A stretch of DNA of 9,740 nucleotides from a virus (Duplodnaviria > Heunggongvirae > Uroviricota > Caudoviricetes), in IMG/VR virus record IMGVR_UViG_2671181019_000001. One strand, written 5' to 3'. Under the pieces are notes generated by a model. The model was not told the DNA's origin. It searched no databases and saw only the letters and a program-made list of their open reading frames with translations. This document shows, piece after piece, positions 4,155-8,996 of the stretch (positions are counted from its first letter, which is position 1; the number at the start of each line of letters is the position of its first letter). Both the position numbers and the translations under genes were made by a program.

Positions 4155-4487
4155 ATGACGAGCAAAGAAACCTTTACCCATTACCAGCCGCTGGGCAACA
4201 GTGACCCGGCTCATACCGCAACCGCGCCCGGCGGGTTGAGTGCGAAAGCGCCTGCAATGACCCCGCTGATGCTGGACACCTCCACCCGTAAGCTGGTTGC
4301 GTGGGATGGCACCACCGACGGTGCTGCCGTTGGCATTCTTGCAGTTGCTGCTGACCAGACCAGCACCACACTGACGTTCTACAAGTCCGGCACGTTCCGT
4401 TATGAGGATGTGCTCTGGCCGGAGGCTGCCAGCGACGAGACGAAAAAACGGACCGCGTTTGCCGGAACGGCAATCAGCATCGTTTAA
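4155..4487 (+). CDS. D: Head decoration protein D
   Basis: 110 aa [12 protein letters not shown]...AGTAISIV, recognised as lambda gpD; AAGGGA 5 nt upstream of ATG 4155. The track ATG at 4149 overlaps the Shine-Dalgarno and is unlikely to be the start. Confidence 0.95.
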
Positions 4488-4504
4488 CCTGACCCTTCAT
4501 CACT

Positions 4505-4529
4505 AAAGGCCGCCTGTGCGGCTTTTTTT
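4505..4529 (+). terminator. Intrinsic-terminator-like hairpin between D and E
   Basis: AAAGGCCGC (4505-4513), loop CTGT, GCGGCTTTT (4518-4526): 9-bp stem with one G-U pair, followed by a run of 7 T (4523-4529). Confidence 0.5.
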
Positions 4530-4542
4530 ACGGGATTTTTTT

Positions 4543-5568
4543 ATGTCGATGTACACAACCGCCCAGCTGCTGGCGGCAAATGAGCAGAAATTTAAGTTTG
4601 ATCCGCTGTTTCTGCGTCTCTTTTTCCGTGAGAGCTATCCCTTCACCACGGAGAAAGTCTATCTCTCACAAATTCCTGGACTGGTAAACATGGCGCTGTA
4701 CGTTTCGCCAATTGTTTCCGGTGAGGTTATCCGTTCCCGTGGCGGCTCCACCTCTGAATTTACGCCGGGTTATGTCAAGCCGAAGCATGAGGTGAATCCG
4801 CAGATGACCCTGCGTCGCCTGCCGGATGAAGATCCGCAGAATCTGGCGGACCCGGCTTACCGCCGCCGTCGCATCATCCTGCAGAACATGCGTGACGAAG
4901 AGCTGGCCATTGCTCAGGTCGAAGAGATGCAGGCAGTTTCTGCCGTGCTCAAGGGCAAATACACCATGACCGGTGAAGCCTTCGATCCGGTTGAGGTGGA
5001 TATGGGCCGCAGTGCGGCGAACAACATCACGCAGTCCGGCGGCACGGAGTGGAGCAAGCGTGACAAGTCCACGTATGACCCGACCGACGATATCGAAGCC
5101 TACGCGCTGAACGCCAGCGGCGTGGTGAATATCATCGTGTTTGATCCGAAAGGCTGGGCGCTGTTCCGTTCCTTCAAAGCCGTCAAGGAGAAGCTGGATA
5201 CCCGTCGCGGCTCTAATTCCGAGCTGGAGACAGCGGTAAAAGACCTGGGCGAAGCGGTGTCCTATAAGGGGATGTATGGCGATACGGCGATCGTCGTGTA
5301 TTCCGGACAGTACGTGGAAAACGACGTCAAAAAGAACTTCCTGCCGGACAACACGATGGTGCTGGGGAACACTCAGGCACGCGGTCTGCGCACCTATGGC
5401 TGCATTCAGGATGCGGACGCACAGCGCGAAGGTATTAACGCCTCTGCCCGCTACCCGAAAAACTGGGTGACCACCGGCGATCCGGCGCGTGAGTTCACCA
5501 TGATTCAGTCAGCACCGCTGATGCTGCTGGCTGATCCTGATGCGTTCGTGTCCGTACAACTGGCGTAA
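4543..5568 (+). CDS. E: Major capsid protein (HK97-fold)
   Basis: 341 aa MSMYTTAQLLAANEQKFKFDP...AFVSVQLA, recognised as lambda gpE; ATG 4543 follows GGGA and a T-run. The track start at 4516 is a GTG inside the upstream hairpin. Confidence 0.96.
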   Translation: MSMYTTAQLLAANEQKFKFDPLFLRLFFRESYPFTTEKVYLSQIPGLVNMALYVSPIVSGEVIRSRGGSTSEFTPGYVKPKHEVNPQMTLRRLPDEDPQNLADPAYRRRRIILQNMRDEELAIAQVEEMQAVSAVLKGKYTMTGEAFDPVEVDMGRSAANNITQSGGTEWSKRDKSTYDPTDDIEAYALNASGVVNIIVFDPKGWALFRSFKAVKEKLDTRRGSNSELETAVKDLGEAVSYKGMYGDTAIVVYSGQYVENDVKKNFLPDNTMVLGNTQARGLRTYGCIQDADAQREGINASARYPKNWVTTGDPAREFTMIQSAPLMLLADPDAFVSVQLA

Positions 5569-5570
5569 TC

Positions 5571-5597
5571 ATGGCCCTTCGGGGCCATTTTCTCTCT
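5571..5597 (+). other. Perfect 7-bp hairpin with TTCG tetraloop plus pyrimidine tract immediately 3' of E
   Basis: ATGGCCC (5571-5577), TTCG (5578-5581), GGGCCAT (5582-5588), then TTTCTCTCT. Begins 2 nt after the E stop codon. Confidence 0.45.
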
Positions 5598-5609
5598 GTG
5601 GAGGAGTCC

Positions 5610-6005
5610 ATGACGAAAGATGAACTGATTGCCCGTCTTCAGGTGCTGGGTGAGCAACTGAACCGTGATGTCAGCCTGACGGGGACGAAAGAAGAACTGG
5701 TGCTCCGTGTGGCAGAGCTGGAAGAGGAGCTTGATGACACGGATGACGCTGCCGGTCAGGACACATCTGTCAACCCGGAAAATGCGCTGACCGGACATGA
5801 AAATGAGGTGGTATCAGCGCAGCCGGATACCGTGATTGATACGGCTGCTCTGGTCACGGTCGTGGCACTGGTGACGCTGCATACTGATGCACTTCACGCC
5901 ACGCGGGATGAGCCTGTGGCATTTGTGCTGCCGGGAACGGCGTTTCGTGTCTCTGCCGGTGTGGCAGCCGAAATGACAGAACATGGCCTGGCCAGAATGC
6001 AATAA
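5610..6005 (+). CDS. FI: DNA packaging / head assembly protein FI
   Basis: ATG 5610 with GGAGGA at 5600-5605; 131 aa MTKDELIARLQVLGEQLNRDV... with acidic central linker; position and sequence consistent with lambda FI. Confidence 0.9.
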   Translation: MTKDELIARLQVLGEQLNRDVSLTGTKEELVLRVAELEEELDDTDDAAGQDTSVNPENALTGHENEVVSAQPDTVIDTAALVTVVALVTLHTDALHATRDEPVAFVLPGTAFRVSAGVAAEMTEHGLARMQ

Positions 6006-6016
6006 CGGGAGGCGCT

Positions 6017-6370
6017 GTGGCTGATTCCGATAACCTGTTCGATGCTGCCATTGCCCGCGCCGATGAAACGATACGCGGGTACATGGGAACGTCAGCCACC
6101 ATGACATCCGGTGAGCTGTCCGGTGCTGTGATACGTGGTGTTTTTGATGACCCTGAAAATATCAGCTATGCCGGACAGGGGGTGCGCGTTGAAGGCTCCA
6201 GCCCGTCCCTGTTTGTCCGGACTGATGATGTGCGGCAGCTGCGGCGTGGAGACACACTGACCATCGGCGAGGAAAACTTCTGGGTGGACCGGATTTCGCC
6301 GGATGATGGCGGAAGCTGTCATCTCTGGCTTGGGCGTGGCGTGCCGCCTGCCGTTAACCGTCGCCGCTGA
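6017..6370 (+). CDS. FII: Head-tail connector (head completion) protein FII
   Basis: GTG start 6017 preceded by GGGAGG (6007-6012); 117 aa MADSDNLFDAAIARADETIRGYMG...; consistent with lambda gpFII. Confidence 0.9.
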   Translation: MADSDNLFDAAIARADETIRGYMGTSATMTSGELSGAVIRGVFDDPENISYAGQGVRVEGSSPSLFVRTDDVRQLRRGDTLTIGEENFWVDRISPDDGGSCHLWLGRGVPPAVNRRR

Positions 6371-7359: not shown

Positions 7360-8106
7360 ATGGCAACACCAAATCCCCTTGAGCCGGTAAAAGGTGCCGG
7401 TACCACTCTGTGGGTTTACAACGGCAAGGCTGATGCTTATGCAAACCCGTTGTCAGACGATGGCTGGCAGCGACTGGCTAAGGTGAAGGATCTGACGCCG
7501 GGCGAGATGACGGCTGAACCCTACGATGATAACTACCTGGATGATGAAGACGCGGACTGGACCGCGACCGGGCAGGGACAGAAATCTGCAGGTGATACCA
7601 GTTTTACGCTGGCCTGGAAACCGGGAGATGAAGGCCAGAAAGGGCTTATAGGCTGGTTTGAAAGCGGCGATGTCCGGGCCTATAAAATCCGTTTTCCGAA
7701 TGGCACGGTGGATGTGTTTCGTGGCTGGGTCAGCAGTATCGGTAAGGCCGTGACGGCGAAAGAAGTGATCACCCGCACGGTGAAAGTCACTAACGTGGGT
7801 AAACCTTCTGTAGCGGAAGAACGCAGCAAAATTACGCCGGTCACTGCGATTAAGGTAACGCCGACAGGTACGGTTGAAAAAGGGAAAACAACCACCCTGA
7901 CCGTTACTGTGGAACCGGAAAATGCAACGGATAAGACATTCAGGGCGATTTCCGCCGATCCATCAAAAGCCACCATTAGCGTGAAAGATATGACGATTAC
8001 TGTGACGGGGGTTAAGGATGGAAAAGTCAGCATCCCTGTGATTTCCGGTAATGGTCAGTTTGCTGCGGTGGCTGAAATTACCGTTAATAATGTGCCGGGT
8101 GGCTAA
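7360..8106 (+). CDS. V: Major tail tube protein with C-terminal Ig-like (Big_2-type) domain
   Basis: 248 aa; GAGGA upstream of ATG 7360; N-terminal two thirds resemble lambda gpV ([10 protein letters not shown]..., [37 protein letters not shown]); C-terminal Thr/Val-rich beta-strand region typical of Ig-like domains. Confidence 0.93.
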
Positions 8107-8124
8107 AGAGCTGAGAGATAAGCG

Positions 8125-8556
8125 ATGTTCCTGAAAACAGAACAATTTGAATATAACGGTGTATCCGTCACGCTTTCTGAGCTGTCTGCGCTGCAGCGTA
8201 TTGAGCATCTTGCCCTCCTGAAACGGCGGGCAGAAGAGGCTGAAGCCAGCGGCAACCTGCAGGTGAGTGTGGAAGATCTTGTCAGAACCGGCGCGTTTCT
8301 GGTGGCGATGTCCCTGTGGCATAACCATCCACAGAAAACGCAGTCACCGTCAATGAATGAGGCCGTGATGAAGATAGAGCAGGAAGTGCTCACCACCTGG
8401 CCTGCCGATGCCATTGCCCGGGCGGAAGACGTGGTGTTGTGCCTGTCCGGGATGATCGAAGCTGTTCGTCCGGATACTGATATTACTGAAGTGGCGAAAA
8501 ATAACACGCTGACTGATGATGATTTTTCTGCGGGAAAGTCTTCGACGGCGAGCTGA
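8125..8556 (+). CDS. G: Tail assembly chaperone G
   Basis: 143 aa MFLKTEQFEYNGVSVTLSELSALQRIEHLALLKRR...; lambda gpG-like; contains the slippery heptamer near its 3' end. Confidence 0.9.
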   Translation: MFLKTEQFEYNGVSVTLSELSALQRIEHLALLKRRAEEAEASGNLQVSVEDLVRTGAFLVAMSLWHNHPQKTQSPSMNEAVMKIEQEVLTTWPADAIARAEDVVLCLSGMIEAVRPDTDITEVAKNNTLTDDDFSAGKSSTAS

Positions 8557-8996
8557 ACTTTGCCCTCAGACTGGCGCGTGAGATGGGGAGACCCGACTGG
8601 CGCGCCATGCTTGCCGGGATGACATCCACCGAATATGCCGACTGGCACCGTTTTTACCGCACGCATTATTTTCAGGATACCCAGCTGGATATGCATTTTT
8701 CCGGGCTGACGTACGCTGTACTCAGCCTGTTTTTTTGCGATCCGGATATGCATCCCTCTGATTTCAGTCTGCTTGTCCCCCGGCATGAGGAAGAGCAGGT
8801 GGAGAGGCCGGATGAGGACAAAATGCTGATGCAGAAAGCGGCAGGACTTGCCGGAGGCGTCCGGTTCGGTGGGGACGGAGGGCGCGATATTTTATCGTCT
8901 GCGGATGTGGCGGATGTCATGGTGGATGATGCCGCATTAATGATGGCTTCAGCGGGGATTCCGGGAGGTGTGAGATATGTCCCAGCCGGTTGGTGA
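8125..8996 (+). CDS. T: Tail assembly chaperone G-T fusion product via -1 frameshift at 8532-8538
   Basis: G frame 8125..8538 joined to the -1 frame 8538..8996. The T-frame region has no convincing independent start and ribosome binding site, consistent with expression only as a fusion. Stop overlaps the H start by 20 nt. Confidence 0.85.
8532..8538 (+). other. Programmed -1 ribosomal frameshift slippery heptamer G GGA AAG
   Basis: GGGAAAG at 8532-8538, with GGA and AAG as in-frame G codons (G frame from 8125). A -1 slip reads GTC at 8538 onward and continues open to TGA at 8994-8996 (the frame of track ORF 8583..8996). Confidence 0.85.

Follow-up and report, generated by a model that had tools for sequence, protein, structure and literature searches.

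A terminator-type hairpin between decoration gene D and major capsid gene E of lambda-like phages with conserved stem and U-tract

The gap between the head decoration gene D and the major capsid gene E of a lambda-like phage (IMG/VR record IMGVR_UViG_2671181019_000001; the entire 9,740-nt stretch analysed is termed the window) contains a hairpin running into a T-run (plus strand, 4505-4529; AAAGGCCGC-CTGT-GCGGCTTTTTTT). Comparison with diverged relatives shows purifying selection on the stem and the U-tract, from which loop and 5' spacer are exempt; the quantitative demonstration of this selection is what is new here. The hairpin as such is already annotated in phages of the lambda/N15 type; by its architecture it belongs to the ordinary class of intrinsic terminators inside antiterminated operons and is no new kind of element. 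With regard to function we lean, with slightly better than even confidence, towards a canonical intrinsic (Rho-independent) terminator that would stop unmodified RNA polymerase and be passed by Q-modified polymerase.

The window represents a lambda-like late region. Its D-E stretch is 98.3 % identical to that of lambda (hairpin and T-run at 6097-6121 in lambda coordinates), and about 80 records of lambda-like phages match it at 97-99 % identity. The promoter pR' and Q are located outside the window, and placement in the late operon is derived from the 98 % identity to lambda. An earlier note on this DNA had described a terminator-like hairpin in the D-E gap; the architecture is indeed of terminator type, and the identity of both flanking genes is supported by their Pfam domains and the 98 % identity to lambda (Table 1). 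Likewise, the gap length of 55 nt given there agrees with the D stop codon (TAA, 4485-4487) and the ATG of E. The first T-run is followed by ACGGGA, a second T7 run and the ATG, which begins 14 nt past the last T of the first run as previously stated, and the weak GGGA Shine-Dalgarno (SD) motif was found as described. ACGGGA is kept in lambda- and N15-type gaps, and conservation extends over the entire stretch between hairpin and ATG. The automatic ORF start of D (4149) lies two codons upstream of the lambda-annotated start.

Table 1 Features of the D-E gap, its flanking genes and the E-FI gap (window coordinates)
Feature	Position	Strand	Evidence or remark
Head decoration gene D (110 aa)	4155-4487	+	Pfam PF02924 (HDPD), E = 3.8e-22; corresponds to lambda D, 5747-6079
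Variable 5' spacer, D stop to hairpin	4488-4504	+	17 nt here; about 13-41 nt in relatives
Hairpin 5' arm AAAGGCCGC	4505-4513	+	Sequence and fold; GC core 99 % identical in 13 diverged lineages
Loop CTGT	4514-4517	+	Sequence; freely variable among relatives
Hairpin 3' arm GCGGCTTTT	4518-4526	+	Sequence and fold; its final four bases open the T-run
T7 run (terminator U-tract)	4523-4529	+	Sequence
Weak Shine-Dalgarno GGGA of E	4532-4535	+	Marked as RBS in the phage 434 record
Second T7 run, SD to ATG	4536-4542	+	Lambda-type and Erwinia L122 only; AAAAATCT in N15-type
Major capsid gene E (341 aa)	4543-5568	+	Pfam PF03864, E = 8.9e-71; ATG start 4543
E-FI gap hairpin ATGGCCC-TTCG-GGGCCAT (UUCG tetraloop)	5571-5588	+	T-rich tail to about 5598; found by both scans; N15 homologue annotated as putative terminator

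The in-frame GTG at 4516, previously listed as an ORF start, is present and falls into the loop and 3' arm. It was rejected as the start of E, since the annotated starts are the ATG at 4543 and since T6 or T8 variants of the T-run put the GTG out of frame while leaving E intact. Such T6/T7/T8 length polymorphism affects both T-runs (4523-4529 and 4536-4542) in near-identical lambda-like phages (L030, L032-L034, L039, L045, L091) and could reflect real slippage or sequencing error.

A folding calculation with RNAfold, as proposed in the earlier note, yielded the 9-bp hairpin with 4-nt loop as both MFE and centroid structure, in a 76-nt context as well as for the hairpin alone (-12.2 kcal/mol, z = -3.5; equally stable dinucleotide shuffles 2/200). 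The RNA core GCCGC/GCGGC with the loop CUGU is extended by one G·U and three A-U pairs into the U7 tract. The previous description of a 9-bp GC-rich stem with a 4-nt loop therefore holds for the dimensions, but only the upper 5 bp of the stem are GC-rich (5 G-C, 1 G·U and 3 A-U pairs in all). The seven T residues said to follow the stem directly are present as well, but four of them had been counted twice, as the lower four stem pairs consume the first four T's of the run. The element is either a 5-bp GC core followed by 7 U or a 9-bp stem followed by 3 U, never both simultaneously. On the minus strand, only CUUUAGUG with three U's comes after the hairpin, and the signal is therefore unidirectional.

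Intrinsic terminators are characterized by a GC-rich stem of about 5-14 bp that folds stably around a loop of 3-8 nt, a U-tract (about 7-9 nt) adjoining the stem on its 3' side, and sense orientation beyond the reach of the translating ribosome. The D-E hairpin has a stem-loop of this type with the T7 run directly after the GC core, is oriented on the plus strand like D and E, and begins 18 nt past the D stop. In relatives the D stop is never nearer than about 13-15 nt to the hairpin; with this spacing and the size of the ribosome footprint, the hairpin can fold behind a terminating ribosome. Canonical E. coli/lambda intrinsic terminators (toop, tR2, tL1, tR') share with it the GC-rich stem, the 4-nt loop, U7 after the GC core and the sense orientation, as well as an upstream A-rich segment pairing with the U-tract. 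Unlike these, the D-E hairpin sits mid-operon with essential genes downstream and cannot be the operon end.

A consensus terminator scan of the window missed the D-E site, probably because the stem extension consumes the T-run, and retrieved 11 terminator-like patterns versus 9.7 expected by chance. A stricter scan (hairpin of <= -10 kcal/mol abutting at least 6 T in 8, with dinucleotide shuffles as control) recovered four sites on the plus strand (2911, 4523, 5588, 8728) and none on the minus strand, versus 0.45 sites in the shuffles, both strands combined. For calibration, the stricter scan was run at <= -9 kcal/mol on whole lambda and the gaps were compared with the lambda feature table. 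Matches fell into gaps which we take to be those mapped as toop, tR2, tL1, tL3 and timm; the sites recovered in these terminator gaps range from -9.9 to -16.7 kcal/mol and thereby bracket the -11.9 kcal/mol obtained for the D-E site in the same scan, i.e., the energies are comparable. This whole-lambda run missed tR', probably because the tR' hairpin does not fit the 24-nt window of the scan. Across 1-19 kb of lambda, the same scan detected seven sense-strand sites versus one antisense locus. Two further terminator-like sense-strand hairpins of the window are located inside coding sequence, one in gene C (2892-2913, T-rich tail to about 2923; 47 nt past the B stop) and one in the G/T region (8704-8735); both occur in lambda, too.

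Existing records already mark the element. A feature 'terminator, rho-independent' is annotated exactly at the D-E hairpin of phages 434 (OL657227), HK629 (NC_019711) and mEp237 (NC_019704), and the record of N15 (AF064539) lists stem-loops before and after its capsid gene 8 as 'putative rho-indep. transcription terminator'. The present hairpin is identical to the annotated features of 434 and HK629, and shares core and position with those of N15 and mEp237. The lambda reference records (NC_001416, J02459) carry no feature at the hairpin, and Rfam 15 gave no match anywhere in the window, so that the hairpin is without a curated RNA family. Full-text literature searches, including one with the exact stem sequence, retrieved no experimental study of 3'-ends, termination or half-life for the D-E site, and Goz et al. 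(2017) contains nothing specific on it.

For the analysis of conservation, D-E junctions were gathered from phage records, IMG/VR and a scan of one genome per species. The IMG/VR search with E returned only loci of 99-100 % identity, fit for polymorphism and not for covariation; the divergent lineages were drawn from the one-genome-per-species scan. A by-product of the latter scan were lambda E fragments (mostly 95-99 % identical) on short contigs, often at about 1x coverage, of unrelated taxa including Chromatium, Kitasatospora, Neobacillus, Paenibacillus, Bradyrhizobium and an Akkermansia MAG (L092-L107, L120, L125, L128, L130, L137, L139, L141-L148, L150-L151, L153, L157-L158, L161-L162, L166), most likely lambda DNA contaminating public assemblies.

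A hairpin with 5-8 T, 12-19 nt upstream of the E start, was found in each of the following groups, i.e., in the N15-type group (E 88-91 % identical; phages and prophages of Kluyvera, Citrobacter, Enterobacter, Trabulsiella, Klebsiella, Pluralibacter and others) as well as of the Erwinia (75 %), Aeromonadaceae (MAG, 72 %), Serratia (56 %) and Buttiauxella (57 %) groups; including the lambda-type, 21 of 21 sequences have a T-run of this length. With the window as reference, the GC core of the stem is 99 % and the T-run 96 % identical across 13 diverged lineages, versus 44 % for the four-fold synonymous sites of E. The lower stem (77 %) has retained its pairing. The loop is only 35 % identical, near the level of the four-fold sites, and takes at least 15 distinct forms in the 22 unique sequences; the D-side spacer is unalignable, differing in length in N15-type and other lineages. 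It is this contrast of GC core and T-run with four-fold sites, loop and variable spacer that argues for selection on stem and U-tract. Among the near-identical lambda-like loci, variation affects the D-side spacer (three haplotypes), the loop and the lengths of both T-runs, and a stem-breaking change occurs in one locus only.

Covariation points in the same direction. In an alignment of 19 sequences, 95.9 % of the cells are paired, and two lower-stem pairs alternate between A-U, G·U and G-C with seven double changes; the observed pairing score was reached by 1 of 500 shuffles, and slid registers drop to 40-66 % paired. The covariation signal is modest (2 pairs, 7 cells), because the GC core hardly changes and is conserved as sequence without full compensatory swaps. 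As judged from these alignments, selection is argued for more strongly by the contrast of stem and U-run with the diverged loop, spacer and synonymous positions.

That the hairpin represents a chance palindrome or a hitch-hiking sequence without function is hardly credible. Short GC hairpins are common, and the consensus scan retrieved patterns at chance rate; on the other side stand the folding z-score of -3.5, the excess of sites under the stricter scan and, above all, the almost complete conservation of stem and U-run next to diverged loop, spacer and synonymous sites, which effectively refutes this reading.

The element does not extend to all relatives. Phages of the D2/PhiR5_1-type (E about 61 %) and a Trabulsiella guamensis prophage possess an unrelated D-E hairpin without canonical U-run; such U-less hairpins, e.g., CAGGCCA..TGGCCTG, are followed by a stronger SD, AAGGA (L006 644-700, L007, L127, L129, L131, L132). 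In Providencia prophages and all relatives with E of 46 % identity or less, the gap is 6-26 nt long or a stable hairpin is missing, and the element is therefore dispensable for the D/E system as such.

The genes E to J are all located downstream of the hairpin with no other annotated promoter in the lambda feature table, and no sigma70-like promoter was predicted on the plus strand of the window. Since E and the tail genes lack another promoter, the D-E site must be read through in lytic growth, in agreement with the earlier view of an operon that must be transcribed through. Termination of unmodified polymerase, read-through under Q and any effect on mRNA stability are inferred. According to the preferred reading as a conditional terminator, the stem and U7 architecture would make unmodified E. 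coli RNA polymerase release the transcript. During lytic growth, Q-loaded polymerase transcribes the late operon; with the Q 'nozzle' blocking hairpins in the exit channel, transcription would proceed into E and the tail genes. The hairpin would then probably serve as a conditional block on polymerase without Q, i.e., on leaky or spurious transcription in the lysogen or during early infection. Outside the polymerase, the RNA would still fold into the hairpin, which would persist in the late mRNA, flanked by the two late cistrons of highest expression, and possibly act secondarily as a barrier to 3'-exonucleases. According to PMC9388147, the nozzle of Q-loaded RNA polymerase prevents terminator hairpins from folding inside the RNA-exit channel. 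The phage L genome paper (PMC8022706) describes terminators within lambdoid late operons as common and of unknown role, and suggests partial termination or halting of non-antiterminated transcription. The advantage of blocking non-Q transcription at exactly the D-E boundary is not obvious. Retention of the U-run despite a strong SD of E in Serratia (AAGGAGG, L134) argues that it is selected as part of a terminator and that the element is not merely a hairpin.

A primarily post-transcriptional function of the D-E hairpin is the main alternative, which we consider possible, if less likely. The hairpin would then be a barrier to 3'-exonucleases for the C/Nu3/D segment, or a 5' stem-loop protecting a processed E mRNA, and together with the E-FI hairpin would bracket E as a long-lived mRNA module, raising the yield of both proteins, of which each head requires about 400 copies. 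Two hairpins do in fact bracket E in the lambda/N15 clade, since one directly 3' of E accompanies the D-E hairpin; almost every E-family relative sampled has such a post-E hairpin, with many different sequences and at protein identities as low as about 30 %. Intercistronic mRNA-stabilising hairpins are known from the malE-malF REP and the Rhodobacter puf operon; they have no U-tract and are not terminators. As in these cases, the D-E hairpin is a stable stem-loop that separates cistrons of the same transcript, beside a highly expressed cistron, and is conserved as a structure at the cistron boundary. It differs in its U-tract, which is under selection: a pure stabiliser needs no U-tract, yet the tract is 96 % conserved. 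Judged by their sequences, the U-less D-E hairpins of the D2/PhiR5_1-type (and of L132) and of Trabulsiella guamensis would fit a purely RNA-level role better than termination. The hairpin is always positioned 12-19 nt before the E start at variable distance from the D stop, which agrees with such a function, but the constant distance may merely reflect the RBS filling that space. Terminator hairpins are known to stabilise upstream mRNA (PMC11696848), and the putative role as a 3' stabiliser of D proposed in the earlier note is compatible with the data.

In the adjoining region, the automatic start of FI (5571) is upstream of the lambda-annotated one (about 5610), and its ATG opens the post-E hairpin. 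The coordinate offset to lambda shifts from 1592 to 1595 within or around FI (5571-6005; ORF table), and the V and G ORFs (7360-8556) are 6 and 9 nt longer than those of lambda; therefore, the window is not lambda itself in that part.

It is improbable that the hairpin is a translational element for E, be it by insulating the weak-SD RBS from long-range pairing, by a U-run serving as S1-binding enhancer or standby site, or by coupling the D stop to the E start. Such a function could be expected from the GGGA-only SD with U/A-rich tracts on either side and from the conserved block between hairpin and ATG. However, partition function calculations in three contexts predicted unpaired probabilities of 0.54-0.61 for the SD/AUG region of E in all cases, i.e., in the wild type, in 5'-arm and 3'-arm mutants and upon deletion of 4505-4529. 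The previous proposal that the structure modulates E translation is not supported by this essentially unchanged accessibility, and shielding or exposure of the E RBS by the hairpin was rejected as far as folding prediction goes. Anti-SD pairing across the hairpin (CCC 4493-4495 with GGG 4532-4534) gained no support either: its mean probability is 0.81 with native and 0.80 with shuffled spacers (21 lineages, T-run misplaced in a few). Furthermore, L134 with its strong SD has kept the U-run, and no hairpin is found where D and E are tightly coupled.

The lambda-type layout of hairpin, U7, ACGGGA and second U7, shared with Erwinia L122, also brings to mind a 'Q-dependent' partial terminator, in which hairpin, spacer and second U-run would end transcription by a fraction of the Q-loaded polymerases with their nozzle-extended exit channel, as a step-down or pause before E. 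This class has been hypothesised explicitly with none found yet and the spacer length unspecified (Yin et al. 2022, PMC9388147); the second U7 run of the lambda-type, 9 nt past the extended stem, would suit it. We regard such a function as very unlikely for the D-E site, because the second U-run is not conserved in the N15-type homologues, being replaced by AAAAATCT, AAATAATTT or TAATGTT in N15-type phages, PhiR47_2 and L123, and doubles as the SD-to-ATG spacer. It would also make little sense to stop ahead of all tail genes and of E, whose product is in greatest demand among the late proteins. The class itself is hypothetical.

In phage T7, the T-phi terminator is located after gene 10. Like T-phi and the terminators T055/T056 of 201phi2-1, the D-E hairpin belongs to terminator-type hairpins flanking the most abundantly expressed structural gene; unlike in the lambda/N15 clade, these phages and their polymerases are unrelated and the elements show no sequence homology. 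The location of T055/T056 upstream of the capsid gene was taken as a hint of antitermination-based timing, and capsid-gene-adjacent terminators were proposed to tune dosage or timing and to imply antitermination (PMC11512511). Direct homologues of the D-E hairpin are the elements of N15 (stem-loops before and after gene 8) and mEp237, which share the core GCCGC/GCGGC and the position and are likewise located inside an operon with a single antiterminated promoter (PMC8022706). The P22/L terminator differs in following the procapsid/capsid module, whereas the D-E hairpin precedes the capsid gene.

The D-E element changes no current view. The 26-kb late operon of lambda is the textbook case of processive antitermination, and internal terminators are what Q-modified polymerase must ignore. 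Since selection clearly keeps stem and U-tract across enterobacterial lambda/N15-like phages, the element does something, and it would be a convenient natural site at which to study the efficiency of Q read-through, the fail-safe silencing of late genes and how stability differs between segments of the late mRNA.
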